From: a virus
Strand: one strand, 5' to 3'
DNA length: 64,000 bases
Virus record (IMG/VR): IMGVR_UViG_3300027518_000008
The position numbers and the translations under genes were made by a program. The notes below the pieces were generated by a model, which saw nothing but the letters and a program-made list of their open reading frames with translations, was not told the origin of the DNA and ran no database searches. Shown one piece after another: positions 6,761-27,195 of this stretch (position 1 is the stretch's first letter; each line of letters begins with the position of its first letter).

Positions 6761-7649
6761 GACCTACGGGAGTCCACAGAAGGTCTCTCAGGTTCTAGGC
6801 ATAGACGTAGGAACGGTTTACCGAAGGCGGTCGGCACTAAAAGACGTATCCCTGCCCTCCTTTGCCGCAAGACAGCACAGCATCGCCAACACATACATCC
6901 CCGATAACCGTAGGGTTATCTCCCACACCGTAGATAACGGTCATGTCTTTATAGCCTCGGACTGCCACTACTGGCCTGGCGAGGAAACCGTAGCACACAA
7001 GGCGTTTGTTTCCCTGCTGACAGAATTTAAGCCCAAGACCATCATCCTAAACGGGGATGTGTTTGACGGGGCTAGAATCAGCCGCCACGCCGCCCTCATG
7101 GGTACTAACCCCCCTACCCCAAAGCAAGAGATAGAAGCCTGCCAAGACCGTCTACACGAGATTGCAAACGCTTCTAAGAACGCTACTAAGCTTTTCACCT
7201 ACGGTAACCATGACGTAAGGTTGTTTAATTACATTGCAACCCACGCCCCAGAGTTATCTGAGTTCAGCGACTTGTTTTCGTACTTTCCAGGTTGGCATAC
7301 GGGGTGGCGGGTGGACATAAACAACTCTGTTGTGGTCAAGCATCGGTGGCACAACGGGCAACACGCGACATATAACAACGCCCTGAAGTCTGGCAGAAGT
7401 ATCGTCACAGGACACCTGCATAAACTGATGGTTACCCCGTGGACGGACTACAATGGGCGCAGATACGGTGTAGACACAGGAACGCTTGCGGAGCCAGGTG
7501 GCGACCAATTTGTGTATGTAGAAGAAAACCCCGTGAACTGGTGTTCTGGGTTCTGCGTTCTGACATTTAAGAATGGTATGTTATTACCACCAGAGTTATG
7601 CGAAGTAATAAACGGCGTGGCTTACTTTCGAGGAGAGAAAGTGGGATAA
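6711..7649 (+). CDS. Calcineurin-like metallophosphoesterase with N-terminal HTH-like segment, copy 1
   Basis: SDCH, NGDVFD, GNHD, GHLH motifs. Confidence 0.85.
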   Translation: MVALKKVSDEELIAAFKTYGSPQKVSQVLGIDVGTVYRRRSALKDVSLPSFAARQHSIANTYIPDNRRVISHTVDNGHVFIASDCHYWPGEETVAHKAFVSLLTEFKPKTIILNGDVFDGARISRHAALMGTNPPTPKQEIEACQDRLHEIANASKNATKLFTYGNHDVRLFNYIATHAPELSEFSDLFSYFPGWHTGWRVDINNSVVVKHRWHNGQHATYNNALKSGRSIVTGHLHKLMVTPWTDYNGRRYGVDTGTLAEPGGDQFVYVEENPVNWCSGFCVLTFKNGMLLPPELCEVINGVAYFRGEKVG

Positions 7650-8099
7650 ATGAGTGATTTAGTAGCCTCGGCAAAGAGTGCCGCGCAGGGAATAAAAAGC
7701 GCGATAGCCGCAGGGAAAGAGATTGAAGCAGTAGTCAACGATATTCAAAAACTTGGGGTCGCAGAACTCCAAGCCAAGCAACAGTTCCAAAAAAAGCAAC
7801 GGGTAGTTAAGGGCGATACCACCATCCTCACAGCCTTTGCGGAGTGGCGCAGACTTAAAGAAATCAAGGAAGCCGAGGACGACTTATTCCAGCAGCTTGT
7901 TGAGCGTTACGGCAAGGACAAGGCTGAGTTTGAGTGGAAGGACATCCAAGCCATCAAAGAGCGCCAGATAAAGGAAGTCAAGGACGGGCGTGACGAGATG
8001 GGGCGTGACCTAAAGAAACTCCGAGAACTCAAGGTTATGTGCTTCATAGCCTCGCTAATCATAGTCACCACTTACTACATCTTCAAAGGACACCTGTAA
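7650..8099 (+). CDS. Coiled-coil protein with C-terminal TM segment, copy 1
   Basis: ORF; near-identical paralog at 44049-44498. Confidence 0.7.
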   Translation: MSDLVASAKSAAQGIKSAIAAGKEIEAVVNDIQKLGVAELQAKQQFQKKQRVVKGDTTILTAFAEWRRLKEIKEAEDDLFQQLVERYGKDKAEFEWKDIQAIKERQIKEVKDGRDEMGRDLKKLRELKVMCFIASLIIVTTYYIFKGHL

Positions 8100-8602
8100 T
8101 GCTATCCCTAATATCTTCCGCTATTGGCTTTTTTGCCTCTGGTCTACCTCAAGTACTAAATTTCTTCCAAGACAAGGCTGACAAGGCGCAAGAGTTGAAG
8201 TTAGCGCAGATGCAGACCGAGCGCGAGTTAGCCCTTGCAGAACGCGGTTTCCTAGCCCAACAAAGGGTCGAGGAGATTAGGACTGACCAGATTGCCCTTC
8301 AGACCGACGCAGACCGCCAGAACGCCGCTTTAGACCACGACAAGGCTATCATGGCTCGCGCCTCTAGTTGGGTCGTGAACTTGAACGGCATAGTTCGCCC
8401 TGCGGTCACCTTTATCTTTGTCTTAGAGTTGGTGCTAATTAACATGGGGCTGACTTACTTCTTGCTAAAGGGCGGTCTTGGAGACATGAGCGTGGAGCAG
8501 TTTATCGCCGCCACAGACGTAATCTTCTCCGAAGACGAGATGGCCCTGCTCTCTGGGATTATTGCTTTCTGGTTCGGGAGCCGCCAATGGGGTAAGAAGT
8601 GA
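8099..8602 (+). CDS. Putative holin (multi-TM), copy 1
   Basis: Hydrophobic segments, VRPAVT and FWFGSR motifs, directly before lysozyme; start moved to ATG overlapping previous stop. Confidence 0.65.
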   Translation: MLSLISSAIGFFASGLPQVLNFFQDKADKAQELKLAQMQTERELALAERGFLAQQRVEEIRTDQIALQTDADRQNAALDHDKAIMARASSWVVNLNGIVRPAVTFIFVLELVLINMGLTYFLLKGGLGDMSVEQFIAATDVIFSEDEMALLSGIIAFWFGSRQWGKK

Positions 8603-9078
8603 AAGTCAGCAAGGAAGCAATAGAGGGGATTAAGAAAGACGAGGGGGTAAGGACAAAACCTTACCGCTGCCCAGCCCTGCTGTGGACTGTTGGGGTTGGA
8701 CACGTTATCGACCAGAACCACATAAGGGTAAAGTTTGATGACCGCAAAAATCTACCAATTCCCGACGGATGGGACAGAGTTCTTAGCATGGCAGAAGTTG
8801 ATGCTATCTTGGCTCAGGACTTGGCTACATTCGAACGAGGTGTTCTGCGCCTCTGTCCAGGTGGACTTACTCAAGGCCGCTTTGACGCTCTGGTTTCCTT
8901 CTCCTTCAACGTCGGGCTTGGCAACCTCCAAAGGTCAACCATCCGCATGAAGCACAATCGTGGAGACTTTGAGGGCGCGGCAGAGTCCTTCATGGCGTGG
9001 ACTAAAGCGGGCGGGAAAGAACTGCCTGGCTTAGTTAAACGTCGGAAGCACGAACGCGCTCTCTATGAATCTGAGTAA
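8599..9078 (+). CDS. Endolysin, GH24 lysozyme, copy 1
   Basis: EG...YRCPA..WTVGVGH, FDALVSFSFNVG, GLVKRR..E. Confidence 0.92.
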   Translation: MKVSKEAIEGIKKDEGVRTKPYRCPALLWTVGVGHVIDQNHIRVKFDDRKNLPIPDGWDRVLSMAEVDAILAQDLATFERGVLRLCPGGLTQGRFDALVSFSFNVGLGNLQRSTIRMKHNRGDFEGAAESFMAWTKAGGKELPGLVKRRKHERALYESE

Positions 9079-9376
9079 TTCTTTCCTTTAGTTCCTCGGC
9101 TATTGTCAAATTGTGCTTGGCCTCAAACTGGTCAAGCCACTTCCTCCTCGCCTCCCTTGTTGGGAGCGTCAACACATACCTTGCCAGCCCTTCTATCTTC
9201 GCCTCATGTTCGCTCATCACGATTTGATAGAACTCCTCTTTGGTGGCGGTAAAGGTTCCTCTGTTAACCAGCCCTAGCAAATGTTTTATGCAACGCTTTT
9301 CTGGCGGTGGTGACGGCTCTGATTGCGTCAGATTTTCGAACAAATCTCCCAAGATAATACCTCTTATAGTTGGCAC
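9035..9376 (-). CDS. Hypothetical protein (true start uncertain, probably shorter)
   Basis: ORF converging on lysozyme; 5' part overlaps the HNH gene. Confidence 0.45.
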   Translation of the reverse strand: MPTIRGIILGDLFENLTQSEPSPPPEKRCIKHLLGLVNRGTFTATKEEFYQIVMSEHEAKIEGLARYVLTLPTREARRKWLDQFEAKHNLTIAEELKERITQIHRERVRASDV

Positions 9377-9725
9377 AAACGTGTGCCTCGTAAAACTTTT
9401 CCTTCCTCTTGTAGACCCCTTTCACATTAGACTTGGTTTTCTCCCGCAACTTGGAGTTCCACCTGTTTTCCATCTGCGTGGCAACTCTGAGATTGCTTAG
9501 TCTATTGTCGGCAAACTTGCAGTTCTTGTGGTCAACGGTCTCAGGCCACCACCCGTGGTGATAAGCCCAGATAATCCTGTGAGCAAAGTAAGGCTTTTTG
9601 AATATAGCAATTTTGCGATAACCGCGAGGGGTTATGTGTCCTGCGATTGTGTTGGCGTACCTAGCGTTCCACATGACATACGCGGAATACTTGGCGAAAG
9701 CCTCAATGGGTCGAGGCTTCCACAC
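9264..9725 (-). CDS. HNH homing endonuclease with AP2-like C-terminal domain
   Basis: AHRIIW...VDHKN...DNRLSNLR; KGVY...YLGRF. Confidence 0.85.
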   Translation of the reverse strand: MWKPRPIEAFAKYSAYVMWNARYANTIAGHITPRGYRKIAIFKKPYFAHRIIWAYHHGWWPETVDHKNCKFADNRLSNLRVATQMENRWNSKLREKTKSNVKGVYKRKEKFYEAHVCANYKRYYLGRFVRKSDAIRAVTTARKALHKTFARAG

Positions 9726-9772
9726 AAGTTCCCCTTTCCTGTAAACAAACAGGGCGCGTAGCTGTTGCTTGC

Positions 9773-10000
9773 TTAGAATGGAATGTCGTCCTCTAAGGCT
9801 TGTTGCTTTGGCTCTGCCTTGGGCTTGGGTAGTTCAACCTTGAGACTCATAAACTTCTGCCCAGACTTGCCTGTTTTAATCCATGCGGCTAGGTTGTACT
9901 CAGTCCCGTCTACGTTTAACTTGCCCTTGTAGGCAGGAGCCTTCTCGTTGTCCGACTCGTTCTTAAACAACACACCGCTATTGGTATTATCGTATTCCAT
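9773..10000 (-). CDS. Small ssDNA-binding-like protein
   Basis: GVLFKN...PAYKGK...AAW, acidic DDIPF tail; analogue at 53957-54256. Confidence 0.6.
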   Translation of the reverse strand: MEYDNTNSGVLFKNESDNEKAPAYKGKLNVDGTEYNLAAWIKTGKSGQKFMSLKVELPKPKAEPKQQALEDDIPF

Positions 10001-10008
10001 AACTTCTC

Positions 10009-10152
10009 CTATTTGGCTGCTATATAAAGACCAACATTGCCAAGGCTATAACCCAAGAAGGCTACGCCCAGACCCACCTTACCCTCTAGTAGCAACTGCA
10101 CCGCTACCACAAGGTATACAACACCGATTCCGGCTATTAACCACGCCGCCAC
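10009..10152 (-). CDS. Small two-TM membrane protein (47 aa)
   Basis: GTG start, MAAWLIAGIG...FLGY; homolog at 50623-50769. Confidence 0.65.
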   Translation of the reverse strand: MAAWLIAGIGVVYLVVAVQLLLEGKVGLGVAFLGYSLGNVGLYIAAK

Positions 10153-10250
10153 TCTGTCCACCCCGCTAGAACAATCACCCCCAGCATAAACAACACAAAC
10201 CACGCCGCGTCCTGCGCGTAGAGGTGTGCAGATATAAGTCCGTCTTTCAT
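10137..10250 (-). CDS. Small membrane peptide (37 aa)
   Basis: Hand translation MKDGLISAHLYAQDAAWFVLFMLGVIVLAGWTEWRRG; homolog at 50525-50638. Confidence 0.65.
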   Translation of the reverse strand: MKDGLISAHLYAQDAAWFVLFMLGVIVLAGWTEWRRG

Positions 10251-10396
10251 TCTTCGTCCTCCGTGTTCATTAGTAATTGATACTTAATCACCTCTAAAAC
10301 CCCCACCACCGAGGCTAGAGGTAGTGCCTCGTCAAACTTCTCCACAGCCCCCACAATCTCTTGGTAGAGGGCTTCTATCATCACCTGCTGACTCAA
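10247..10396 (-). CDS. Hypothetical protein (49 aa)
   Basis: Hand translation MSQQVMIEALYQEIVG...; start and stop overlap neighbours. Confidence 0.5.
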   Translation of the reverse strand: MSQQVMIEALYQEIVGAVEKFDEALPLASVVGVLEVIKYQLLMNTEDEE

Positions 10397-10587
10397 CCCC
10401 GCATCTCCTGGGCCAAAGTCTTAAATCCCCAATCCTCTGCCATCCTCGCGCACCGCAACATCTCCTCCTCGCGCACAATATCCGCAAACCTCTGCAACTG
10501 GGTACGAGAGTCCTCGTGGAAGTTGAACAATATCTCGCCCTCCTTCAAGAACAATCCCGCTTCTACCGCTAGGTCGTCAATCGTCAC
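10393..10587 (-). CDS. Hypothetical protein
   Basis: ORF in tightly coupled operon. Confidence 0.55.
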   Translation of the reverse strand: MTIDDLAVEAGLFLKEGEILFNFHEDSRTQLQRFADIVREEEMLRCARMAEDWGFKTLAQEMRG

Positions 10588-11182
10588 ACTCAGCCTCCAC
10601 TTCCTTTAGAAATAACTGCACCTTTTCTAACATCTCGTCCATGTCCTTTTGCTCCGGCTCAAACCGCACGATAAAGAGCATCTTGCTCACCGGAAGCCTA
10701 GAGTCGAAGCTTACAAAGTCGCACCACTTCCTACCCGTACAGGCTAGTTGGAGCATCATCTGGTTTTTATACTTTGTGGGAACCTTGCCCGCCTTCCTGT
10801 ATTGCAGGTGCGTAGCCGTGTTCGGATTCTTAATCTCTACTAGACCATCCTCCCCAACAAGCCCGTCAGGAGAGGCTCCTAGCCATTGTATTGTCGGGTG
10901 GGGTACGAAGCCTACTTGGTCTACGAAAACGCCCGTGTGAGCCTCGTATGCGGCTCTGGCGATGGGTTCCTGCTCGGTTCCGCGAATCATAGCCGCGTTG
11001 GGCGCAAAACCCGCCTGTGGGGTCTTGGTAAGTCTTTCGGCTACGAGCTGCCAGAGGTAGTTCTTGCGGGTCTCTGTGTCCTTACCCGCTAAAGCGTCGC
11101 TAACCCTGCTGGCCGTTACAAACCCCAACCTCGCTAGTAGCCATTCCTCTGTGCCCTGGACTATTTCTTTGTAATCGGTCAT
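10577..11182 (-). CDS. YqaJ/lambda-exonuclease family recombination exonuclease
   Basis: QGTEEWL..R.G.VTAS, GASPDG, EIKNP, Y..QM..Q. Confidence 0.92.
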   Translation of the reverse strand: MTDYKEIVQGTEEWLLARLGFVTASRVSDALAGKDTETRKNYLWQLVAERLTKTPQAGFAPNAAMIRGTEQEPIARAAYEAHTGVFVDQVGFVPHPTIQWLGASPDGLVGEDGLVEIKNPNTATHLQYRKAGKVPTKYKNQMMLQLACTGRKWCDFVSFDSRLPVSKMLFIVRFEPEQKDMDEMLEKVQLFLKEVEAECDD

Positions 11183-11519
11183 TGAGCCTCCTTTTGGCTA
11201 TGTGTAGTTCTGCCTCTAACTTATCCGTACTCATCCGCAACCTTTGGGCTACATTGTGGCTCAAGTTATACGGGTACTGGATATATCTTGCCTTCAAAAC
11301 CCTGCGCGATATATCAGGTAATTCCCTAACCGCGTCCTCCACCATCTGCCCGTCAATCATGTCGGGTTCTATTCTCGGTTCTTCTCCTTCAAAGACATCC
11401 TCGGACTCGTAGTTGCCCTCTGCGCTCGCACATTGGGTACGGTGTTCTGGGCCAACATGACCCCAAGCACAATAAAACGCCCAGTTCCGAAGACGGTCTT
11501 CGCTAATCATATTGTGCAT
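11100..11519 (-). CDS. Antiterminator Q-like / late transcription regulator
   Basis: RLRNWA N-term, V..AV..LP...R.VL..RY and C-terminal HTH-like segment. Confidence 0.5.
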   Translation of the reverse strand: MHNMISEDRLRNWAFYCAWGHVGPEHRTQCASAEGNYESEDVFEGEEPRIEPDMIDGQMVEDAVRELPDISRRVLKARYIQYPYNLSHNVAQRLRMSTDKLEAELHIAKRRLNDRLQRNSPGHRGMATSEVGVCNGQQG

Positions 11520-11995
11520 CCAGCGTGGTATTTCCTTTTTGCAACTAGATACGCTTGATGAGCCAAGTCTGGAGTTTCAAAATAACCTAATTTTTTAACT
11601 TTCCCCAAAATCCTAATTTGAGAAATCCATTTGCTAGATTTTTTATGTTTGGTTACTCCCAAAAACCCAGATGTATTTCTAGCTGTCGGTTTTCTTAAGT
11701 TTTCTAAATTTTGTCTCCTAGAAACAGACCTTAAGTTACACAGTCTATTGTCAGTTTTTATTCCATTTATGTGGTCAATATCTTCTGTGGGCCATTCTCC
11801 ATAAACATAAAACCAAACAAGCCTGTGCGCTCGATATGTTTTACCCAAAACCCTTATGTCAATGTACCCGTGCTTGCTGTTTACAGTTCCGGCATGAAGA
11901 TTTCTTTGGCGAACCTTCCTAACAAACAACCCCGTTTCTGGGTTGTAATCCATGAGTTTTATAAGTTCTGTTTGGTCTAATTTTTTTTGAACCAT
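11507..11995 (-). CDS. HNH homing endonuclease with AP2-like domain
   Basis: AHRLVW...IDHINGIKTDNRLCNLR; SGFLGV...LGYF. Confidence 0.88.
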   Translation of the reverse strand: MVQKKLDQTELIKLMDYNPETGLFVRKVRQRNLHAGTVNSKHGYIDIRVLGKTYRAHRLVWFYVYGEWPTEDIDHINGIKTDNRLCNLRSVSRRQNLENLRKPTARNTSGFLGVTKHKKSSKWISQIRILGKVKKLGYFETPDLAHQAYLVAKRKYHAGCTI

Positions 11996-12657
11996 AAGTC
12001 GTATAACTCCGGTCTGTTGGCTTTAATCCAAGGTTGGGCAGATTGTATAAGTTCTTTGGCATTAAATCCACACGTTTGAGAACCGACGTGGTGGACGTAA
12101 GCCCTGCTGATGGCGTGCTGAAAGCCCTTCTTCTGAATGTCTAAGCATTGCACATCGTCCGAGTACCAATTCAAGGGTGGGAAGTCCACCCATGCGTCCT
12201 TGTGAATGTAACTACAAATCGGGGCTATAACATCGGTAATGTTAATAAGATTCTCGGTCTCGTACCTGAACCACTCCATTTTTCCCTGACCAAGCCGAAT
12301 GTTCTGCAAACCTCGGGCATAATCAGACCTAGCGGATACCCATCCGAGGGGGATTCTTTTGTCTCGCAAAAACGTAACGTCCTCGCCAAGCAGCTTCCAG
12401 GTGCTAGGGTTAAACACAATATCGTCGTTACAGACCACCACCTCGTCAAACTCCTCAAACGCCCGCTTGACCACGGCGTTGTAAGCGTCACCAAAGTTAT
12501 CCGCGTCGTTGGGTAGGTTTATCGTCCTGTGGCGGGGGAGAATAATCTCGCTACCCTCTAGGAACACGGTCACGTCTTGCGGGACGTAGAAGGTTATGGA
12601 GGCCGCTAGGACAGGTAGGCAAGCCCCCTTAGTTGTTGCTATCGCTATTGCTTTCAT
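11977..12657 (-). CDS. Glycosyltransferase, GT-A fold-like
   Basis: FGDAYN...VVVCNDDIVF, WYSDD, VHHVGSQT. Confidence 0.65.
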   Translation of the reverse strand: MKAIAIATTKGACLPVLAASITFYVPQDVTVFLEGSEIILPRHRTINLPNDADNFGDAYNAVVKRAFEEFDEVVVCNDDIVFNPSTWKLLGEDVTFLRDKRIPLGWVSARSDYARGLQNIRLGQGKMEWFRYETENLINITDVIAPICSYIHKDAWVDFPPLNWYSDDVQCLDIQKKGFQHAISRAYVHHVGSQTCGFNAKELIQSAQPWIKANRPELYDLWFKKN

Positions 12658-12953
12658 TTATTCCCTACCGGTAAAGTTTTGCCCAAAAGACGGTACACAT
12701 CCTCTAATAATTCCTGCTCGGTAAATCCGTAGTGCTTTGGGAAGCCTTTGGTTCCGAGTCCGTGGATTCCTTCATCTCCACGATGATGTCGAGGGCAGAG
12801 GGGGATGACGAAATAATTACTCGGTCTACCCCACCCTTGTCCACTCCGAATATGGTGTAACTCAGCAGGCGTGCCCTCATGGCCCAATCTGCGACAGACA
12901 GCGCATCCCAATTCTGCAACCGCAGACATATGCTTCTTTTCATCTTTGGTCAT
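12654..12953 (-). CDS. Ref-like (recombination enhancement) HNH-fold protein
   Basis: LGCAVC...ELHH...IPLCPRHHRG...GIH; start at ATG overlapping the methyltransferase stop. Confidence 0.7.
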   Translation of the reverse strand: MTKDEKKHMSAVAELGCAVCRRLGHEGTPAELHHIRSGQGWGRPSNYFVIPLCPRHHRGDEGIHGLGTKGFPKHYGFTEQELLEDVYRLLGKTLPVGNK

Positions 12954-14359
12954 ATCCTCTCTACCGCCTGAATTCTTTCCCCAATCCACCGCATCACGGG
13001 AACCGCCATGCTATTGCCCAATGCCTTGTACCTTGGCCCATCAGGGCAGTTCTCACGGATGTTGGTGTAGTTGTCAGGGAACCCTTGTAGACGTTCGCAC
13101 TCTACTGGTGTCAGGCGGCGAACTGCCATCTTTTGCATGACAGCCATAACACCATCTGCATTTCCACCAGTTCTAATAGTTGGAGACAAATTTTTTGTTG
13201 CATCCCTACCATTATCAATTCTTGAAAAAGCAATCGGTTGCGCCACTCCATGTATGTCTGCTTTGGTTAGCGTATACATAACACCATCATCTGATGCGCC
13301 AACTCCTTGCGGGCCACCAGAATCCCTTCCAATTAGGTTTCCTTGAATAGCAACAACCGCAGACCCGCAAGCATTTTCTTTGGCTAGGGTATGACAAGGG
13401 TCTCCTACTTTGCGACTTAACTGATGGTTTTCTTTAGAAGTCACTTGTTTTAAGTCGTATGGAATAACCTGAACTAGATTTCCCTCTCTCCCCTCTGCAT
13501 TGCAACTAAGAGTTGTAGCAACTTCTGATGGCTTTATCCGACTATCTTGGTTGTGCCACTCATAGGTTAATGAAGCAGGAACAAACATTGGAGCTCCCTC
13601 ATTTATGTGTTGGTTTTCTAAACCAAGTTTTGAGCCAAAGTTTGCATTTAATGTTGAGCAGATTTCTGCCGGCCAGGTTACAAAGGTTTCGCTTCCTCCG
13701 GCTAAGACTCCTCCGCTTGCTTTGAGGGTTCCTCCAATTTTGTCTGGGCGATATTGAGCAAGGCTACTTTCAGCGTATGCGGTAATTCCTTTTCCCTTTT
13801 CTCTGCTCGGCGCAGGATTCCCGCACAAGCTGTCGCGCTCAAAAAGTACCGCTGCGGCATTTCTCCAGTTTCCAAGACATCCGACAACAAACACACGTCT
13901 GCGTCGCTGGGCCACTCCGAAGTACTGAGCGTCAAGAACTCTGTAGGCGAACCCATACCCGAGTTCTGCCAACATTCCAAGGAAGGTTCCAAAGTCCCTT
14001 CCTCCGTTGCTCGACAAGACACCGGGGACATTCTCCCAAACCAACCACTTGGGCTTAAATCGTTTAGCAATTGCACCGTAGGTAAGCATGAGGTTGCCAC
14101 GCGGGTCATCCAATCCTTTTCGCAGACCTGCAACTGAGAATGATTGGCAAGGTGTTCCTCCGACCAAAAGTTCAACTGACTCAAGATTCCACTCCTCAAA
14201 TTTAGTCATATCCCCCACATTGGGAACAGATGGGTAATGATGTTTTAAAACTTGGCCAGGAAACTTTTCAATTTCCGAAAATGCCACAGGCTCCCAACCC
14301 ATGTGATGCCAAGCAACCGTTGCGGCTTCGATGCCAGAACAAACAGATAGGTATCTCAT
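12950..14359 (-). CDS. DNA (cytosine-5) methyltransferase
   Basis: LSVCSGIEAA (I), GGTPCQSFS (IV), ENVPG (VI), QRRRRVFVVG (VIII), RRLTPVECERLQGFP (IX), GNSMAV (X). Confidence 0.93.
   Translation of the reverse strand: MRYLSVCSGIEAATVAWHHMGWEPVAFSEIEKFPGQVLKHHYPSVPNVGDMTKFEEWNLESVELLVGGTPCQSFSVAGLRKGLDDPRGNLMLTYGAIAKRFKPKWLVWENVPGVLSSNGGRDFGTFLGMLAELGYGFAYRVLDAQYFGVAQRRRRVFVVGCLGNWRNAAAVLFERDSLCGNPAPSREKGKGITAYAESSLAQYRPDKIGGTLKASGGVLAGGSETFVTWPAEICSTLNANFGSKLGLENQHINEGAPMFVPASLTYEWHNQDSRIKPSEVATTLSCNAEGREGNLVQVIPYDLKQVTSKENHQLSRKVGDPCHTLAKENACGSAVVAIQGNLIGRDSGGPQGVGASDDGVMYTLTKADIHGVAQPIAFSRIDNGRDATKNLSPTIRTGGNADGVMAVMQKMAVRRLTPVECERLQGFPDNYTNIRENCPDGPRYKALGNSMAVPVMRWIGERIQAVERI
13702..14199 (-). 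CDS. Out-of-frame nested ORF, M.EcoHK31I beta-polypeptide-like
   Basis: WQNSGM...SEWPS...LSDVLET...YFLS..AC.GILRRA, recalled as the nested beta-subunit pattern; same strand, alternative frame; start uncertain. Confidence 0.65.
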   Translation of the reverse strand: MRSGILSQLNFWSEEHLANHSQLQVCEKDWMTRVATSCLPTVQLLNDLSPSGWFGRMSPVSCRATEEGTLEPSLECWQNSGMGSPTEFLTLSTSEWPSDADVCLLSDVLETGEMPQRYFLSATACAGILRRAEKREKELPHTLKVALLNIAQTKLEEPSKQAEES

Positions 14360-14463
14360 TGTTCGTTTTTGATTCGTAACCAAACCAAGACTTCTTCCCA
14401 GCTCAACGGGGTTTCCAAAAAGTCAGGTTCCCGTAGTCCAAACAACGAATAATCTATCTTCAT
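14356..14463 (-). CDS. Hypothetical protein (35 aa)
   Basis: Hand translation; overlaps ninB stop and methyltransferase start. Confidence 0.45.
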   Translation of the reverse strand: MKIDYSLFGLREPDFLETPLSWEEVLVWLRIKNEQ

Positions 14464-14831
14464 TTAAGCCCCCTCGTATTTTCACTAAATGTTACATCGT
14501 GTTCCAAAGCCCATTTCACCACCTTCTCTACATACTCCGAGAACAAGGCTTGGTTTAACTCGCTCGTACTCGGTTCTAGCATTTTTATGCTTCCGTCTGG
14601 CAACTCAATCATCCGTTCAGGTAGGAACAAGGCGCGTAGGTATTCGTGCCAGATACTAGGCTCGTAGGCTTTACCTGGCACAACCTGCTCGGATATATCA
14701 CCCAAGACCGCCCAGTAGTATCTGTTGCTATCCAAACTGCGTTTAGGAGGACGGACTTCTAGGATATGCCCATCAGGTGCGTTATCCACCATCTCACGGG
14801 CTAGGTTCCTGTTGTGTGGTGAGAGAATCAC
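14460..14831 (-). CDS. ninB: NinB family protein
   Basis: RSLDSNRYYWA...I, WHEYL..LF, STSEL...FSEY.E. Confidence 0.8.
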   Translation of the reverse strand: MILSPHNRNLAREMVDNAPDGHILEVRPPKRSLDSNRYYWAVLGDISEQVVPGKAYEPSIWHEYLRALFLPERMIELPDGSIKMLEPSTSELNQALFSEYVEKVVKWALEHDVTFSENTRGLK

Positions 14832-15217
14832 GCAGACTTGAGCGCGGCTCTCATTACCGCAACCTTAAAGTGTTGCCACGACTCGAACTGGCTAGGGTCT
14901 AATCCTAGTTCCTTGCCCTTGACTTCTATGCCTGTGGCGGTTTCGTGCCAAGGCTTTTCGTTAACTACGTTTGGCAACTTCACTTCCAGCTCATCTTCCC
15001 AACGCTCTCCGCGAAGCCAGGTGGCTGGATACGGGATAAAAGCCCCGCCAGACTTCATCCAACTCTCGGTCTTGCAGTTAGCGGTTATGGCAGTTAACAA
15101 ATTTGTTAATTCAGGCCGTATATCTTTTGTCTGCGCCCACGCTTTTCTAGCGTCTGCCTTGGCTACTTTCTTAGGGTAAGCAGCCCAAAACTTATCGAAG
15201 TCATCCATGTTTACCAC
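14828..15217 (-). CDS. Replication-initiator C-terminal-like protein
   Basis: FDKFWAAYPKKVAKADARKAW...PYPATWLRGERWEDE. Confidence 0.6.
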   Translation of the reverse strand: MVNMDDFDKFWAAYPKKVAKADARKAWAQTKDIRPELTNLLTAITANCKTESWMKSGGAFIPYPATWLRGERWEDELEVKLPNVVNEKPWHETATGIEVKGKELGLDPSQFESWQHFKVAVMRAALKSA

Positions 15218-15253
15218 CTCCTCGTGGCGTATTGTAATCGGTTATGTAACATT

Positions 15254-15628
15254 CTATCCTAGGTACTTACCCCTATAAATATCTACCGCCTCGCGCAGAG
15301 TAATTTCTGGGATTTCTGTTAGCCAACTGCAATTCTCGCGGACTTGTGTAACCGTGGTCAACCCCATGTCTATATCCCCAGACGACTCATGCGAGGTCAG
15401 GAGAATCAAGCAATGTTTATGCGGGGGGTCGTTTATTGCATCGCAGACCCGTTCTAGGGCTAGAAGCTGTCCGCGAGGGATGGGCGAGTTTTTGTACTTA
15501 GTCTCGACAATGATAAACAGGCGGTTAGAGAACTCTAGCAGGGCATCTACATCTGTCGGGGATATTGCACCCCACCTTAACCCTGAGAAGTTCTTTAGCT
15601 GACTACCGTACTCTCTATTCCTATACAT
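15254..15628 (-). CDS. Possible PD-(D/E)XK-fold protein
   Basis: TDVD...IIVETK. Confidence 0.45.
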   Translation of the reverse strand: MYRNREYGSQLKNFSGLRWGAISPTDVDALLEFSNRLFIIVETKYKNSPIPRGQLLALERVCDAINDPPHKHCLILLTSHESSGDIDMGLTTVTQVRENCSWLTEIPEITLREAVDIYRGKYLG

Positions 15629-15850
15629 AATCCTCCCTTACTATGTATATATCTGCACTTTTGGTGGACGGACTTAGCCTTAGCCTATCCGTCCTTTACC
15701 TGCACTTTCGGAGCCACAGGACTCGTTAGCCTTTTCGCGTTCTGGTGCTAACTTCGCCGCCAGGTTAGGGTATTCCAACGCTGCCCACAGTACCCCTATC
15801 GCCATCTAGCCCTGCCGTCTTTCGCCGACGACTAGGTAGCGGTCAGCGCC

Positions 15851-16010
15851 AAAGAAAAACCCCAAGAACTTAGCGGGTGTGACCCTGGCATGGGCAACTT
15901 CGGAATCAGGCGAGATAACCCAATTTTTGAAATTACGCACACCCGCTAAATACTCGGGGTTTGCATCTCATTCCGGTGTTGCCGCACCGACACCGCTAAG
16001 ATACCACAGA
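15851..16010 (-). promoter_or_regulatory. Promoter plus structured leader/attenuator
   Basis: Extended -10 TGGTATCTT; small hairpin 15974-15995; long hairpin 15859-15960 followed by a T-rich tract on the minus strand. Confidence 0.6.
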
Positions 16011-16011
16011 T

Positions 16012-16320
16012 TTAGTTAAGTTCAACCAATTTTATTGTCCAACCCGCTTTTAATTTCCCCCACCCGTGGACATGGACTTTCCACCCAGACCGAACCAACT
16101 CTGGGAAGTACTCGTTTTCCGCGATTTTCTTGACCCTAGCCGAGACATTGCCCCTGCTGGTGGTCTGCACTCCTATGGTCTCCCCGTTGCCCACCGCCAA
16201 GATGTCTATACAGTTCCACAGGTCTATCCGCTTGCGGGAGTAGGGACACCACCTCTCCACAATCCAGCACCGGTAACCTTGGTCGCGTAGGTACTTGAGG
16301 CTTCTTTGGGTAGGGGACAT
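16012..16320 (-). CDS. PD-(D/E)XK nuclease-like protein
   Basis: DLWNCIDILAV...GVQTTS. Confidence 0.55.
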   Translation of the reverse strand: MSPTQRSLKYLRDQGYRCWIVERWCPYSRKRIDLWNCIDILAVGNGETIGVQTTSRGNVSARVKKIAENEYFPELVRSGWKVHVHGWGKLKAGWTIKLVELN

Positions 16321-16441
16321 TCTTACATTCTACTGTATAACCATACATTAGGGTTAGTCCCTAGTATATTTCTTACACAACCCCTAAAAGTGGTGTAAGA
16401 TTCTGTTCATGGCATCCCGCCATATACGCCGAGGAGGGCAT
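16321..16441. promoter_or_regulatory. Divergent control region of phage B
   Basis: Gene polarity switches here; inverted repeat TCTTACAC-N14-GTGTAAGA; extra TCTTACA at 16321. Confidence 0.6.
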
Positions 16442-16555
16442 ATGAAATACGACGAAGATTGGTACTACACACCCCCAGAGTTCGAGTCCGAGGAGGACGA
16501 GGAAGAGGATTCTTACTGGGAAGAACGGGCATGGGAGGCAAGCCAATATGACTGA
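16442..16555 (+). CDS. Highly acidic 37-aa peptide
   Basis: GAGGAGGG RBS; hand translation MKYDEDWYYTPPEFESEEDEEEDSYWEERAWEASQYD. Confidence 0.7.
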   Translation: MKYDEDWYYTPPEFESEEDEEEDSYWEERAWEASQYD

Positions 16556-16769
16556 TGCAGAACACCACCAGCAAGAGTTGGAGCAACAGGAGCAAGAGGA
16601 CTCAATCTGGGAACGCGCAAGACTGATGGCTAAGAACCACGGCAAGATGATTGGGTGCGCTCAGACCATACGGGACTCTAGCGGTGACGAGGACTATGTA
16701 AGAATTGCAGTAAAATACTTACTAGAAGCTTTGAAGGAACACGAAGATATTATGAGGAGATACGGATGA
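16548..16769 (+). CDS. Hypothetical protein
   Basis: Coupled ORF. Confidence 0.6.
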   Translation: MTDAEHHQQELEQQEQEDSIWERARLMAKNHGKMIGCAQTIRDSSGDEDYVRIAVKYLLEALKEHEDIMRRYG

Positions 16770-17317
16770 ACTCAGTAGATTTACTAAAGATTAACGTCAA
16801 CGACCACACGGAGAAGAAGGGCAACCTTACATACCTGTCGTGGGCATGGGCTTGGCAAGAGGCAATCAAGGCAGACCCGCAAGCAGAGTGGACTGTCAAG
16901 ATGTTCGGCGAAACGTACGATAAACCGTACGTTAGCATCGGGGACACCAAGATGGTGTTCGTAGACGTAACCATGTTCGGCAAGACCCTGACCTGCCAAC
17001 TGCCCGTCCTTGACCACAAGAACAAGGCTATCCCTAACCCAGACGCTTTTCAGGTCAACACGGCAATCATGCGTTGCCTGGCAAAGGGGATTGCAATGCA
17101 TGGCCTAGGCTTATACATCTACGCAGGTGAGGACTTACCGGAAGATGGCTCAAAACCTGAGCCAGCAGAATTCGTCAAACTAATCGAGGAGAGTAAAAAT
17201 GTCGCAGATTTACAATCAAATTGGAAAGCAGCGTACAGCGCGTCTCAATCAGATGCGGGGTTTATCGCAGCTATCACGGTTGCCAAGGACAGAAGAAAAG
17301 CAGAACTGGCTGCTTGA
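16766..17317 (+). CDS. sak: Sak-type (Rad52-like, DUF1071) ssDNA annealing protein
   Basis: LTYLSWAWAW, LPVLD..NKAI, RCLAK.IA.HGLGLYIYAGEDLP. Confidence 0.85.
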   Translation: MNSVDLLKINVNDHTEKKGNLTYLSWAWAWQEAIKADPQAEWTVKMFGETYDKPYVSIGDTKMVFVDVTMFGKTLTCQLPVLDHKNKAIPNPDAFQVNTAIMRCLAKGIAMHGLGLYIYAGEDLPEDGSKPEPAEFVKLIEESKNVADLQSNWKAAYSASQSDAGFIAAITVAKDRRKAELAA

Positions 17318-17371
17318 CACCCTAGCCTTTGTAGCGTGTTGCGTTACAGGCTACACGGTACTGGTGATGCT

Positions 17372-17575
17372 ATGAACCAAGAGCAAATCAACAGCCTTTC
17401 TGACAAGCGGCGGGTCTTAGACTTGTCGCCCCAAAGACCGTGGCAGGAGTTAGACATCCTAGAACTCAAGTCGATTGCGGAGTCTTGCAATCTCTGGGGT
17501 TCGGATGTTTACAGCGACGTAGAGGAACTAGCGGCTGAGATTAACAAACGACTGAAAAGGAAGAACCATGTATGA
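17372..17575 (+). CDS. Hypothetical protein
   Basis: ORF, start moved to ATG. Confidence 0.5.
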   Translation: MNQEQINSLSDKRRVLDLSPQRPWQELDILELKSIAESCNLWGSDVYSDVEELAAEINKRLKRKNHV

Positions 17576-17735
17576 GAGTGAACACGCGGTTAAGATTATT
17601 AGTCTGGGCAATCGCCTCCAGCATGAGATGGCTAACTCGTATGCTCCCGACAGAGACACCATCACGACGCTATGTCAGGAAATTGAGAACTCAGCACACG
17701 AAATCTACAAGTGGGCGCGAGGGATAGATGAGTAG
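17568..17735 (+). CDS. Hypothetical protein (55 aa)
   Basis: Hand translation MYESEHAVKIISLG...; overlaps both neighbours. Confidence 0.55.
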   Translation: MYESEHAVKIISLGNRLQHEMANSYAPDRDTITTLCQEIENSAHEIYKWARGIDE

Positions 17736-17806
17736 GTTTACCTACATTCCCGCAGACAAAACAGACTTAAGAGAGTCCATGAAAAGATATAGAAAGATGG
17801 TAGAAG

Positions 17807-18016
17807 ATGAAAATCGAAGATTACATTCTGGCGAGCGTGAAGCCAGTTCACCCAACCCACCTGGCAGAGAGATTTTCGGTCAGCAAAAGCAAGGCTTACA
17901 ACGCTTGCGTGTCGTTACTACTGGAGGGCAAAGTTGAAGAAGTCAGAGTCGGTGCGCGAACCTTTTATAGGGTTCGTAGAGATGAACCTAAAGATGGACA
18001 ACGTGCTGAAGACTAA
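17807..18016 (+). CDS. Small winged-HTH-like protein
   Basis: LAERFSVSKSKAY...L...GKVEEVRVG..TFY. Confidence 0.5.
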   Translation: MKIEDYILASVKPVHPTHLAERFSVSKSKAYNACVSLLLEGKVEEVRVGARTFYRVRRDEPKDGQRAED

Positions 18017-18188
18017 GTTTTGCTTCTCATGCCAACGGGACAGGAACAAGGAAAACGGAAGTTACATAATTAGAAAGGGAAACAAACAATGGAAATGTAT
18101 GGACTGTCAACAGAAACGCTGGTTCTCTACGCAACCATCGCCCTCGCAATCGCCGGTTACAGGACGAGATAATGAAAAACACGACTAG
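17982..18188 (+). CDS. Small zinc-finger protein
   Basis: CFSC...WKCMDC; homolog at 48726-48914. Confidence 0.55.
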   Translation: MNLKMDNVLKTKFCFSCQRDRNKENGSYIIRKGNKQWKCMDCQQKRWFSTQPSPSQSPVTGRDNEKHD

Positions 18189-18390
18189 AATCTACGAGGT
18201 AATCTTCAACTCGAAGGAACCCGTAACCCTGAACGCAATCAAGACGGCGTTGGACATGAAGCCAGGTATCTGTTCCGGCTCCCTTGCAAGCCTTCTCAAG
18301 TCTGGGCAGATAGAACGGGTGCAACTAACCGCAGAAAAAGGGCGAAAAAATATCTGGGGATATGTTGCAAAAAGTCAACAAAAAGAGTAG
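18172..18390 (+). CDS. Small winged-HTH-like protein
   Basis: L..I...L.MKPG..SGSL..L...GQIER. Confidence 0.5.
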   Translation: MKNTTRIYEVIFNSKEPVTLNAIKTALDMKPGICSGSLASLLKSGQIERVQLTAEKGRKNIWGYVAKSQQKE

Positions 18391-18442
18391 CATTGTCGGT
18401 GGAGTAGTGCGCCTCCTCCTCAGCCTACTCCTTCAAGCCCTC

Positions 18443-18476
18443 AAACCCCCTCAGTCAAAAGCTGGGGGGGTTTTCT
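18443..18476 (+). terminator. Rho-independent terminator
   Basis: AAACCCCCTCAG-TCAAAAG-CTGGGGGGGTTTTCTT hairpin plus T tract. Confidence 0.65.
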
Positions 18477-18491
18477 TATAAGGTGATAACC

Positions 18492-18566
18492 ATGTACGGA
18501 AAAAAGCCAATGAAGCCCGCCAAGCCCGCTAAAAAAGCACCTGGCAAGTACGCTCCCAAGAAATGA
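18492..18566 (+). CDS. Lys/Pro-rich 24-aa peptide
   Basis: AGGTGA RBS; MYGKKPMKPAKPAKKAPGKYAPKK. Confidence 0.55.
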   Translation: MYGKKPMKPAKPAKKAPGKYAPKK

Positions 18567-18898
18567 AGGGGCCGACAATAATGATTGGGCTACTTGGGAA
18601 GCCAAGGGAGTCCAAGGAGATGGAAGGCGGTCTGCTAGACGAAAGCGGCGAGTGTCCGCTTGCGACGCAGGACGAGACCATCAACAAGGGCAACAAGCAA
18701 AAAGCCATCCTGACCGCCAGATACGGCCCTAGCGAGGGCGAAGAAAAGTGCGGGAACTGCGAGTACGGCATGAAGTTAAAGGGCTGTGGACTCGGCAAGG
18801 ACGAAGTTTTCTGCGACGTTTATCAATTTAAGTGCTCCAAGGAAAACGTCTGCGACGCTTGGGAAAGCATGGAAGAAGACGAAGAAGAATCGGATTAA
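18563..18898 (+). CDS. Cys-rich acidic protein, HiPIP-like motif
   Basis: KCGNCEY...FCDVY...VCDAW. Confidence 0.5.
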   Translation: MKGPTIMIGLLGKPRESKEMEGGLLDESGECPLATQDETINKGNKQKAILTARYGPSEGEEKCGNCEYGMKLKGCGLGKDEVFCDVYQFKCSKENVCDAWESMEEDEEESD

Positions 18899-18930
18899 CG
18901 ACTTCTTTAACTGCCCAACAGGAGATTAAA

Positions 18931-19089
18931 ATGCCCTTTCGCTCGAAGCAGCAAGCCAAACTAATGTTTGCCGCAGCCGCGTCCCCAAAGGTCGCCAAGG
19001 CTACGGGTGTCCCCCAGAAGGTAGCCAAGAAGATGGTCAAGGAAGGGCAGTCTAGCCTGAAGAAACTACCGAAAAGGGTAAAGAAATGA
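18931..19089 (+). CDS. Small basic protein
   Basis: GGAG RBS; MPFRSKQQAKLMFAAA...KKLPKRVKK. Confidence 0.65.
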   Translation: MPFRSKQQAKLMFAAAASPKVAKATGVPQKVAKKMVKEGQSSLKKLPKRVKK

Positions 19090-19244
19090 AAGAAGTCTAC
19101 GAGAAGGCTAGACCCAAGAAGTTAGGCAAGCCCAAGGCTCTCAGCCCCAACCAGAAGGCTGCCGCCAAGCGGTTCGCCAAGTCCACGGGTACTAAATACC
19201 CCTCCCTGCTCGCCAATATGCGCGGGGCGCAAGCCAAGAAATGA
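19086..19244 (+). CDS. Small basic protein (52 aa)
   Basis: Hand translation MKEVYEKARPKKLGKPK...YPSLLANM; ATGA overlaps. Confidence 0.6.
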   Translation: MKEVYEKARPKKLGKPKALSPNQKAAAKRFAKSTGTKYPSLLANMRGAQAKK

Positions 19245-19579
19245 AGATAAAGGACGCTGCCAAGCGGTTCGAAGCCTATGACAGAGCAACTACGAAGAAA
19301 ATGGCCGAACATAATCGGTCTGGTGGAGATGTTCGCGCACCTGTTAGGTCGCTCAAAGGAGCCTCAACGGGCGACAAGTACGACCGCGCCAAGTTCATCT
19401 ACCGCAAAGCAGCCCAAGCTCTCAGCGCAGGTCACCCTCTTAAAGACGAAAAAGGCAGAGCCACGCCAGCCGCGCTCCAGTTCAAACGCTGGGCAGCCAA
19501 AGTCCCGCAAAACCAAGCCGACCTCCAAGACCTCAAAGCGCTCGGCACAAGGCTAAAAGAGAGATATAAGCCTAAGTGA
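19241..19579 (+). CDS. Basic protein
   Basis: KDEKGRAT...WA motif shared with 58083-58355. Confidence 0.6.
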   Translation: MKIKDAAKRFEAYDRATTKKMAEHNRSGGDVRAPVRSLKGASTGDKYDRAKFIYRKAAQALSAGHPLKDEKGRATPAALQFKRWAAKVPQNQADLQDLKALGTRLKERYKPK

Positions 19580-20097
19580 AACTCAACCTTGGCTCAGGCA
19601 AGGATTGGCGCAAGGACTGCATAAACGCTGACATCCAACCGGAGAAGAAACCCGATTGGGTGCTAGACATTACACAAGTCCCGTGGGGCGAGGTGATAGA
19701 CACCCGTCTAGGGAGGTTCCCCGTAGAAAAGGGAATGTTTACCGAGATTATCGCCAACGATGTCTTGGAACACATCCCAGACCTAGTATCCGCGATGACT
19801 AACTGCCGAGACCTGCTAAAGCGGGGAGGCGAGATGCACATCCATGTGCCTTATGACCTAAGTCTAGGGGCATGGCAAGACCCGACTCATGTGCGGGCGT
19901 TCAACGAAAACTCATTCTTATATTACACAGATTGGCATTGGTATCTAAACTGGGAGGAGAAGTTCACCTGCACGCAGATGGGGTTTGAACTCTCAGACCT
20001 AGGACACGAATTGAGGGAGGAAAAGATTCCCTTAGAGAGAATTATCCGCACCCCTCGTGCCGTAGATGCCCTGCAAGTCATACTCAAGAAGGATTGA
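19576..20097 (+). CDS. Class I SAM-dependent methyltransferase (type 11-like)
   Basis: LNLGSG, NDVLEHI, DPTHVRAF. Confidence 0.8.
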   Translation: MKLNLGSGKDWRKDCINADIQPEKKPDWVLDITQVPWGEVIDTRLGRFPVEKGMFTEIIANDVLEHIPDLVSAMTNCRDLLKRGGEMHIHVPYDLSLGAWQDPTHVRAFNENSFLYYTDWHWYLNWEEKFTCTQMGFELSDLGHELREEKIPLERIIRTPRAVDALQVILKKD

Positions 20098-20098
20098 T

Positions 20099-20167
20099 AT
20101 GTTACATACCCTGTGGTCAGACATAAAATTATTAGCCAAGCGTATTCTTGCAAAGCTAGGACTGTAA
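20099..20167 (+). CDS. 22-aa amphipathic peptide
   Basis: AAGGA RBS; MLHTLWSDIKLLAKRILAKLGL; fills the gap exactly. Confidence 0.35.
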   Translation: MLHTLWSDIKLLAKRILAKLGL

Positions 20168-21934: not shown

Positions 21935-21981
21935 TTGTATAATTACCACAGTTATACCGAACAACCACCAAGGATTCGGAC

Positions 21982-22284
21982 ATGGAAATCAGTAAAGTAG
22001 GGGAAATTACAGAACGCAAGCTCCCGCCTAACGCTGGCAAGGGAAGGCCACCAGGAACGCCTAATAAGTCCACAGCGGCGGTCAGAGAGGCCATTGCTAG
22101 GATGGCAGAGGACAACGCAGAGAACTTCGCTGAGTGGCTCACAAAGGTCGCCAAGGAGAGTCCTGAAAAGGCGTGCGACATCTACCTAAAGGCGATTGAG
22201 TACCACATCCCCAAACTAGCGAGAACAGAAGTAACAGGCGCAGAGAACGGCCCGCTGACCATTAAGGTGGTCACGGGAATATGA
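21982..22284 (+). CDS. terS: Terminase small subunit (putative)
   Basis: GRPPGTPNK N-term, EVTGAENGPL C-term, overlaps terL. Confidence 0.65.
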   Translation: MEISKVGEITERKLPPNAGKGRPPGTPNKSTAAVREAIARMAEDNAENFAEWLTKVAKESPEKACDIYLKAIEYHIPKLARTEVTGAENGPLTIKVVTGI

Positions 22285-25619: not shown

Positions 25620-25987
25620 GTGGAAGCAATAGTTCAACCGTAACGTCTGGCGGCTCTGTTACGCCATACGGGGGGATAACCCCAATTGGGCAATTATTTC
25701 AAGAAGCCTTTACCAAAATCAGGATTGCTGAAAACCCACGGATGTGGGACTTAAACCCGCAGGTTAATTATGTTGCACCGCCCACAACACAAGACCTTTT
25801 CCCATATATCGTCCAAGGGCTACAACAGGCTCGACTAAACCAGTTTGCTGGGCAACTTCCTAACTACTCGTTTGGGGCGGCAAGGTTTGTACCAACTGGA
25901 GCAAACCAGTTCCTAGTTGGGCAAATACCGCAATTAAACTATTCTTTGCCACAGGCCAGCGCAACACAAAGTCAAGCGACTAAATGA
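25616..25987 (+). CDS. Gln/Pro-rich hypothetical protein
   Basis: ORF with ATGA overlap of portal stop. Confidence 0.55.
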   Translation: MSGSNSSTVTSGGSVTPYGGITPIGQLFQEAFTKIRIAENPRMWDLNPQVNYVAPPTTQDLFPYIVQGLQQARLNQFAGQLPNYSFGAARFVPTGANQFLVGQIPQLNYSLPQASATQSQATK

Positions 25988-26217
25988 ACGAAACAGAACG
26001 GGCAATAGCCCTCCTGAACGACGAGTTCTTTATGGGTGTTGTAGAAAAGCAACGCCTGATGTATATTTCCAACATATTAGATAGTTCTGACGAGGACGTA
26101 GATGTTCGTGAACGCGAGCGTCTAAAACTCAAGGGGCTAGAAGAATTTATTGCGTCACTCCGGTCTATCTCTGCCAACAAGGAGATAGACAAGAAACGCA
26201 AATTTATGGTTTTTTAA
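25984..26217 (+). CDS. Small head-module protein
   Basis: ERA..LLNDEFF...RE pattern before scaffold. Confidence 0.6.
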   Translation: MNETERAIALLNDEFFMGVVEKQRLMYISNILDSSDEDVDVRERERLKLKGLEEFIASLRSISANKEIDKKRKFMVF

Positions 26218-26235
26218 CCACAGTAGGAGTTCCAA

Positions 26236-27183: not shown

Positions 27184-27195
27184 GGAGATTAGAAA

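Follow-up and report, generated by a model that had tools for sequence, protein, structure and literature searches.

A conserved gene in the +1 frame of a phage C5 cytosine methyltransferase and its predicted association with the enzyme

Introduction

Does a phage cytosine methyltransferase gene encode one protein or two and, if two, do they act together? The question is raised by a 64,000-nucleotide (nt) stretch of viral DNA (IMG/VR record IMGVR_UViG_3300027518_000008; the whole stretch is referred to here as the window), which carries on its minus strand a C5 cytosine DNA methyltransferase (MTase) gene with a second, long open reading frame (ORF) lying out of frame inside it. A preliminary description, made from the letters of the window, proposed that this DNA is dual-coded and likened the nested ORF to the beta chain of M.EcoHK31I. 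Our analysis argues that the nested ORF is a gene kept by selection, predicts that its product binds the MTase, and suggests a division of labor between the two chains that differs from that of M.EcoHK31I. The features needed to follow the argument are these:

12950..14359, minus strand: C5 cytosine DNA methyltransferase gene, main frame (ORF, Pfam PF00145, TIGR00675)
13702..14184, minus strand: nested +1-frame gene, 160 amino acids (aa) plus stop, from the likely TTG start (ORF, aligned homolog starts)
14192..14197, minus strand: Shine-Dalgarno-like GAGGAG, 7 nt upstream of the TTG at 14184 (sequence read)
14137..14154, minus strand: motif IV (TPCQSFS, with the catalytic Cys) of the main frame, dual-coded with nested residues ~11-16 (motif scan, 14152; frame comparison)
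13750..13932, minus strand: most conserved core of the nested protein, residues ~85-145, overlying main-frame motifs VII-VIII and the post-VIII linker (alignments, four-fold divergence)

Results

The nested frame behaves as a gene under selection

The preliminary description placed a 165-codon ORF (165 aa) at 13702..14199, on the same strand as the MTase and inside its gene. These coordinates hold, as do the strand and the frame, the offset from the MTase being 160 nt, or 3x53+1, which corresponds to the +1 frame; it is the start that calls for revision. Judged from aligned homologs, the TTG at 14184 is the likely start and would give a protein of 160 aa, and the TTG at 14199 is a less likely one because it overlaps the Shine-Dalgarno sequence itself. 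A start codon lies within one codon of the aligned 14184 position in 62 of 62 full-length homologs (43 ATG, 19 TTG), and in 50 of the 62 a Shine-Dalgarno-like motif, mostly AAGGAG, stands upstream of it.

Relatives of the MTase were picked by main-frame peptide patterns alone, a choice blind to the nested frame, which gave 71 unique sequences. The nested ORF is kept in all 71, and the +1 frame is free of stops over a 145-codon span in 67 of them; in two others (L066 and L070) the nested ORF is intact and just stops some codons sooner, and in the distant CobraSix and an Opitutaceae genome the nested version begins further downstream. The +2 frame of the same relatives contains 2-13 stops. For comparison, 24 ordinary C5 MTases were sampled from 201 genomes; in every one of them 1-14 stops interrupt the +1 frame across the corresponding stretch. 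Loss of the ORF among homologs had been named beforehand as an outcome that would speak against a second gene; what was found is its retention throughout the relatives and its absence from ordinary MTases.

Silent sites of the main frame give a second view of the same region. Among the 62 full-length relatives, four-fold-site divergence is 0.65-0.72, and thus saturated, at main residues 1-60 and 211-469, including the sites of motifs I, IX and X, which are equally conserved as protein. At residues 61-210 it is 0.08-0.47, its lowest values falling in residues 151-165 (0.096) and 181-195 (0.084), and the dip starts and stops at the ends of the nested ORF; under the nested core the values are 0.08-0.31. 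To provide a null for similarity in the +1 frame, distant homologs were recoded with random synonymous codons drawn from their own usage. The +1 peptides resemble the nested protein of the window far above this null in CobraSix (z 10.2), mycobacteriophage Omega (z 10.2), the P1-like RCS47 dmt (z 14.2) and Opitutaceae (z 7.5), whose hosts differ greatly in GC content. In addition, tblastn with the nested peptide matched 146 phage records, and in all three of the records whose annotation was read the match fell in the +1 frame of a C5 MTase gene. The nested gene is tied to one MTase subfamily, present in phages of Actinobacteria, Proteobacteria, Verrucomicrobiota and others, and in the loci seen it never occurs without the MTase.

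These comparisons argue that the nested ORF is a genuine protein-coding gene under selection, and the dual coding put forward in the preliminary description is borne out by the four-fold dip, by recoding nulls exceeded with z of 7.5-14, and by the conserved start and Shine-Dalgarno sequence. A mere by-product of main-frame conservation was rejected by means of the four-fold profiles and synonymous recoding nulls, the tests having also included within-region codon shuffles.

Gene callers have often chosen the nested frame over that of the MTase itself, in 1505 clusters at 90% identity, and at 50% identity the family comprises 3503 representatives, 1347 of them below 1e-10; for L004 and L005, two relatives with both frames open, the caller nevertheless gave the nested ORF plus a C-terminal methylase fragment. 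In the ESM Atlas the family is present as clusters of "hypothetical protein", mostly viral. As a side observation, the nested protein is matched (E 6.3e-06) by the PHROGs family phrog_16143, which spans 139 positions and goes under the name "DNA methyltransferase"; this PHROGs family was probably built from alternative-frame gene calls that were named by location. Within the library searched, we found no published description of the nested gene.

The nested protein is predicted to wrap around the methyltransferase

One complex prediction was made for the nested protein with the MTase, using own alignments for both chains, together with three controls. The interface score ipSAE was 0.74, 0.78 and 0.73 for the complex model and 0.00 for the best of the three controls. 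Of 80 solved complexes, 58 reached this mark, compared with 2 of 110 mismatched pairs. The runs have no less than 76% of contacts in common, and the predicted local distance difference test (pLDDT) of the partner is at least 63. Recall of a solved complex is an unlikely source of this result because the partner has no sequence relative in the PDB and no related complex has been solved.

The modelled interface is large, with ~270 contacts, and on the nested side it is formed by residues 25-145. On the MTase side it comprises four stretches: residues 112-186, from motif VI to the post-VIII linker; residues 334-377, in the last recognition module; residues 409-424, at motif IX; and residues 440-469, at the helix of motif X. 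The tightest modelled pairs join SGM (74-77) and EWP (90-92) of the nested protein to the motif VII strand of the MTase, residues 138-147, and in the model these contacts look like an edge extension of the catalytic sheet. Nested residues 1-24 are free of contacts. The model thus predicts that the nested protein binds the MTase, a prediction supported by the natural fusions described below.

Sequence and structure of the nested protein

The nested gene overlies MTase motifs IV-VIII, and the consensus of its family has four parts. An N-terminal M-x-Q-[LS]-[TM]-F-x-x-E-E is followed by two helices (residues 20-43), by a poorly ordered middle rich in Gly, Ser and Pro that contains NSGMG and SEWP, and by a highly conserved C-terminal part with LSD-x-LETG, RYFLS and GILRRAEKRGK-x-LP and two confident helices. 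The core of the window's protein reads TEFLTL..SEWP..LSDVLETG..RYFLS..GILRRAEKR..LP. Modelled as a monomer with AlphaFold, the protein reaches a pLDDT of 69 and a predicted template modeling score of 0.37, being confident only at residues 20-43 and 110-150 (AF2 pLDDT 84-97 at the latter), as expected of a protein that folds on its partner.

Searches for relatives of known structure or family returned little. A profile search of the PDB gave only a chance match (E 0.5); among 48,161 chains the best fold match to the monomer model (Z 4.8) covers a helical hairpin only and is uninformative on the fold; and no model in Pfam or NCBIfam matches the nested protein of the window. A PF00145 match of any kind, with E values up to 10, was found for 2 of 104 family members, which are probably frame-fused sequences. 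Compared with Dcm by hhalign, the best local match of the family falls on Dcm motif IX with a probability of 0.26%, which is not significant, and against 28 canonical MTases the best match falls on the element that follows motif VIII (E 0.15, likewise not significant). The C-terminal half can be lined up by eye with the post-VIII segment of Dcm (F-x-F-P ... L-x-D-I-L-E ... Y-x-L-S), and weak hmmsearch matches of the family cluster 28-54 residues past motif VIII in 5 of 16 cases. That the nested protein carries the canonical post-VIII segment may serve as a lead only, the profile comparison not being significant. A piece missing from the main chain was also considered and rejected on length, the distance from motif VIII to motif IX being at least 88 residues in this family, with a median of 218, compared with 100 and 121 in canonical enzymes.

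One relative (L090, 2311-3597) is of separate interest, with an insertion of ~50 codons between motifs III and IV that reads in the +1 frame like an MTase recognition module; its nested ORF is extended upstream to 208 aa.

A clamp-like peptide in the free N-terminal tail

The contact-free tail of the complex model contains a short peptide of its own:

14164..14178, minus strand: QLNFW, nested residues 3-7, a sliding-clamp-binding-like motif in the free N-terminal tail (family consensus, complex model)

The N-terminal consensus of the family can be written M-x-Q-[LS]-[TM]-F-[FLWS]-x-E-E. The nested protein starts MSQLNFW in the window, MNQLTFF, MQMSMF or MQLSIF in relatives, and MTFDQLDLF in Omega, QLDLF being the textbook bacterial clamp-binding pentapeptide. 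An N-terminal Q-x-x-phi-phi motif is present in 147 of 185 family members as against 6 of 635 background windows. It occurs in two registers relative to the EE that follows, and Omega keeps it though the underlying main-frame residues differ from those of the window. Such patterns point to selection on the clamp-like motif itself, and docking on the clamp is a function that we infer for it. A comparable arrangement is found in Hda, which carries its clamp motif, QLSLPL, in a flexible N-terminal loop (PMC5397184).

Natural split and fused variants

In six of the 150 best representatives, nested residues 1 to ~130 are joined in frame to the recognition region and motifs IX-X. In the contigs that carry such fusions the main frame stops soon past motif VIII, which leaves a chain with motifs I-VIII and an overlapping chain composed of nested protein, recognition region and motifs IX-X. 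Two loci display this split form, L125 (1218-2304) with ORFs 1218-1793 and 1390-2304, and L127 (2323-3529) with ORFs 2323-3114 and 2501-3529, the latter recurring on 19 contigs. Since 19 contigs drawn from several samples carry the fusion P0134 in unchanged form, it is not a one-off assembly error; P0190 is found on 2, and its model is poor (pLDDT 62; best structural match Z 2.4) and uninformative on the fold. Fusion junctions differ between lineages, which suggests independent indels. The enzyme of mycobacteriophage Omega (L002, 1167-2471) is split in another way: gp127 contains motifs I-VIII with the nested ORF inside and gp128 contains the rest. Should the split variants be functional, the nested protein must have its C-terminus close to where the recognition region starts, and it would then be part of the enzyme.

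The methyltransferase chain and its surroundings

The MTase ORF spans 12950..14383 on the minus strand and, read from the ATG at 14359, encodes 469 aa plus stop. Its product matches PF00145 over residues 1-164 (E 3e-58) and TIGR00675 with 193.8 bits against a cut-off of 100.65 (E 5.9e-57). By phmmer, residues 1-167 correspond to M.HhaI 12-176, which covers motifs I-VIII, and motifs I, IV (PCQ), VI (ENV) and VIII (QRRR) follow in order in a single chain. The second half of the chain holds two further features:

13145..13744, minus strand: variable (target-recognition) region, MTase residues 206-405, with several T-L-type modules (GC 43.5%, homolog segment matches)
12971..13129, minus strand: motifs IX and X of the MTase, residues 411-463 (phmmer alignment to M.HhaI 269-318)

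Both had been anticipated. The alignment to M.HhaI supports the statement that the main frame has a motif IX of its own, and the variable region is indeed AT-richer (43.5% GC against 49.8% and 54.2%) and modular, its segments aligning to different homologs at shifted positions. The stretch from motif VIII to motif IX is ~240 residues long with five T-L/T-I-type cores. Given this long modular region, multispecificity of the MTase is plausible but unproven.

The early region around the MTase is nin-like, with a NinB gene at 14460-14831. Downstream of the MTase lies a RecA-dependent nuclease / DUF968-like gene (12654-12989), which shares the last 40 nt of the MTase gene (12950-12989) in another frame, and two genes downstream of the MTase is a homing-endonuclease-like gene with HNH_3 and AP2 (11507-11995). 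In L090 a NUMOD4/HNH gene immediately follows the MTase. For window positions 16000-40000 and 40001-64000, megablast against phages returned no close relative.

The restriction-site composition of the window divides it into blocks, one of which is defined as follows:

7364..38917, no strand: CGCG- and CCWGG-bearing block ("phage B" composition), containing the MTase gene (site positions and counts)

CGCG occurs at 103 sites within this block and at none in 1-7363 and 38918-64000, where ~76 would be expected, and the only MTase motif that a scan detected in the window belongs to the 12950-14359 gene inside the block. The contrast in CGCG content drawn in the preliminary description is therefore real. 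CCWGG has 36 sites inside the block and 3 outside; no GATC lies within 2560-43903, and few lie in the rest of the window; GGWCC is absent throughout; and depletion of AGCT, GGCC, CCSGG and YGGCCR is confined to the CGCG-bearing block. The contig of the closest relative of the MTase has the same site signature. Protection of CGCG, and perhaps of CCWGG, by the MTase is a reasonable inference that the site counts fit, CGCG and CCWGG being the two sites purged from neighboring related phage DNA. The CGCG-bearing and CGCG-free blocks could equally reflect different past hosts.

Segments 2384-9056 and 38657-45455 are 73-88% identical, which implies related prophage units spaced ~36.3 kb from each other, the window running from the end of one through a complete unit into the start of another. 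The edges of the CGCG block do not coincide with the boundaries of these units. The right edge of the block coincides with the start of an 812-aa tail gene at 38926. Homologous right-end segments differ in CGCG content, which suggests mosaic recombination between a CGCG-free and a CGCG-tolerant phage lineage. Palindromic hexamers as a class are strongly depleted both outside the block, with 194 observed against 504 expected (24 of 64 at zero), and inside it, with 119 against 488 (33 of 64 at zero). Within 7364-38917, CGCG sits in a 6-bp palindrome once as ACGCGT and not at all as TCGCGA, CCGCGG or GCGCGC, where about a quarter of sites would be expected.

Discussion

Our findings are best accommodated by a gene whose +1-frame coding sequence overprints motifs IV-VIII of a phage C5 MTase. 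With its own Shine-Dalgarno sequence and the TTG at 14184, it would be translated into a protein of ~160 residues, largely unfolded alone, whose residues ~25-145 would wrap the MTase where the catalytic domain, the last recognition module and motifs IX/X meet, the catalytic domain contributing to this junction its motif VII strand, its motif VIII and the linker that follows. The enzyme would then be a two-chain complex encoded by one DNA stretch, and the free N-terminal Q-L-x-F-phi tail would most likely dock this complex on the host sliding clamp, such that freshly replicated phage DNA is methylated quickly. Taken as a whole, from overprinted gene through MTase-binding partner to clamp-docking tail, we consider this account probable, though well short of secure. 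Several points weigh against it. Translation of the nested gene is argued from sequence signals, and a need of the MTase for its partner is likewise a proposal drawn from comparative sequence data. The complex is a prediction made with own alignments. The partner has no assignable fold or family; the clamp motif is short, with a poor fit in RCS47 (MQLTTNGL) and CobraSix (MQSTQS); and gene decay could account for the split and fused variants. Furthermore, family enzymes were presumably cloned with the nested ORF inside, and published activities cannot separate the two chains.

The strongest alternative, which we nevertheless regard as unlikely, accepts the nested protein as real and selected and gives it a function unrelated to MTase activity, for example as an anti-defence or replication factor. 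Overprinted phage genes are often functionally unlike the gene that hosts them, and the sharing of DNA might follow merely from the compactness of phage genomes; no family, fold or motif links the nested protein to methylation chemistry, and the N-terminal clamp-like peptide could act by itself at the replisome. It is harder to reconcile such an independent function with a gene tied to one MTase subfamily and never found alone in the loci seen, with a strong complex model whose controls score zero, or with the recurrence in nature of in-frame fusions to the half of the enzyme that carries the recognition region and motifs IX-X.

Programmed frameshifting into the +1 frame, yielding an isoform composed of nested protein, recognition region and motifs IX-X or else a truncated catalytic chain, is very unlikely. 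Fusions of this composition do exist, joined within a purine-rich stretch (RRA-KKKK in P0190), and at its end the overlap in the window carries GAGAAAAGGGAAAAGG, the nested frame there encoding AEKREKE. Against it stand a start codon and Shine-Dalgarno sequence conserved at the nested N-terminus, an N-terminal peptide that is itself conserved, a stop that ends the nested frame in all unsplit members, and junctions that vary by lineage as independent indels would, unlike a single slippery site.

Still less probable, in our judgment, is that the nested ORF is the equivalent of the M.EcoHK31I beta chain and gives motif IX to an incomplete alpha chain, as the preliminary description had supposed. 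The general layout is the same, a second polypeptide inside an MTase gene in another frame, and the best hhalign match to Dcm did fall on motif IX, at the non-significant probability given above. The main chain of the window, on the other hand, has its own motifs IX and X; the nested gene of ~160 aa overlaps motifs IV-VIII; its best match among canonical MTases is to the post-VIII element and not significant; and PF00145 is matched by the same 2 of 104 members, with neither the protein of the window nor the family profile reaching significance. The nested ORF is therefore not a donor of motif IX, which the main chain already has, and comparison with PF00145, Dcm and 28 canonical MTases brought out no significant similarity. 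Finally, we give next to no credence to an open +1 frame produced by main-frame conservation or recent recombination in place of a second gene. The overlap does sit on the most conserved MTase motifs, where two of every three bases are constrained, yet four-fold sites are saturated in motifs I and IX/X, as conserved in protein, recoded nulls are exceeded by z of 7.5-14 in hosts of differing GC, none of 24 canonical MTases has the equivalent span open, and start codon and Shine-Dalgarno sequence are conserved.

If the overprinted, MTase-binding gene is accepted, these widespread phage MTases, including those of the P1-type dmt, probably work as two proteins from one DNA stretch. A stronger form of the proposal, in which a very large subfamily of phage C5 MTases, the P1-type dmt among them, consists of obligate two-chain enzymes whose partner completes them at the hinge joining catalytic and recognition domains and tethers them to the host sliding clamp, is tentative, and we would not count on it. 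Were it true, phage DNA methylation would be coupled to replication, a bacterial-virus counterpart of the eukaryotic DNMT1 bound to PCNA, and the clamp-like tail would offer a possible route to replication-coupled protective methylation during phage growth. Were the nested protein a working subunit, thousands of "orphan" cytosine MTases of phages and prophages would be two-gene units. The nested gene is almost never annotated and, where called, appears as "hypothetical" or "DNA methyltransferase" (phrog_16143). Expression clones would have silently carried the partner, and structure-function studies, efforts to engineer specificity and the application of these enzymes as tools may have to be re-examined. 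The overlap would also rank among the longest and most deeply conserved same-strand overlaps in bacterial viruses, placed on nearly invariant motifs, and it is a strong test case for the optimization of two proteins on one sequence.

Comparison with known systems

The long modular variable region between motifs VIII and IX is a feature shared with the multispecific C5 MTases of the Bacillus phages SPR, phi3T and rho11s, which to our knowledge are single chains with no reported nested gene. Naturally split C5 MTases are exemplified by M.AquI, in which the alpha chain carries motifs I-VIII and the beta chain IX-X. As in these enzymes, a break between motif VIII and the recognition region is tolerated in Omega, L125 and L127, and in the split variants of the family the nested protein forms the N-terminal domain of the second chain. 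The main chain of the window differs in being unbroken, the extra chain being a separate 160-aa protein. With Hda and the DNMT1-PCNA pair the nested protein shares a Q-L-x-L/F-F-type peptide in a flexible terminus and the idea that methylation may be coupled to the clamp, with the difference that the putative motif here would reside on an accessory chain and not on the MTase itself.

A hidden alternative-frame ORF in a phage methylase gene has a precedent in the ShiLan element, an HNH endonuclease encoded out of frame within an insertion of an actinophage DNA methylase (PMC11855218). There the ORF is located in a mobile insertion and encodes a homing nuclease, whereas in the window an ancient overlap falls on the conserved catalytic core and its product is a predicted partner of the MTase.

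The closest parallel remains M.EcoHK31I, an enzyme of E. coli HK31 that recognizes YGGCCR and whose beta chain is encoded wholly in another frame of alpha (PMC2836561). Alpha contributes motifs I-VIII, motif X and the recognition domain, beta contributes motif IX, and both are needed (PMC2836561), so that the properties ascribed to it in the preliminary description, a heterodimer with motif IX on a beta chain read from an alternative frame, agree with the published account (PMC2836561). The window resembles this system in that the MTase gene contains the entire coding sequence of a second polypeptide, read from the same strand in a different frame. The two chains of M.EcoHK31I associate and are jointly required for activity (PMC2836561); for the window, association is predicted by our complex model. 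It departs from M.EcoHK31I in that motif IX is held by the main chain and the nested protein has no recognizable MTase motif, and further in that the nested gene overlies motifs IV-VIII, belongs to a vast and phage-borne family, and begins with a clamp-like peptide. On the reading of an overprinted partner gene, the MTase of the window would be another C5 MTase with an out-of-frame second chain, far more widespread than M.EcoHK31I and built on a different division of labor.

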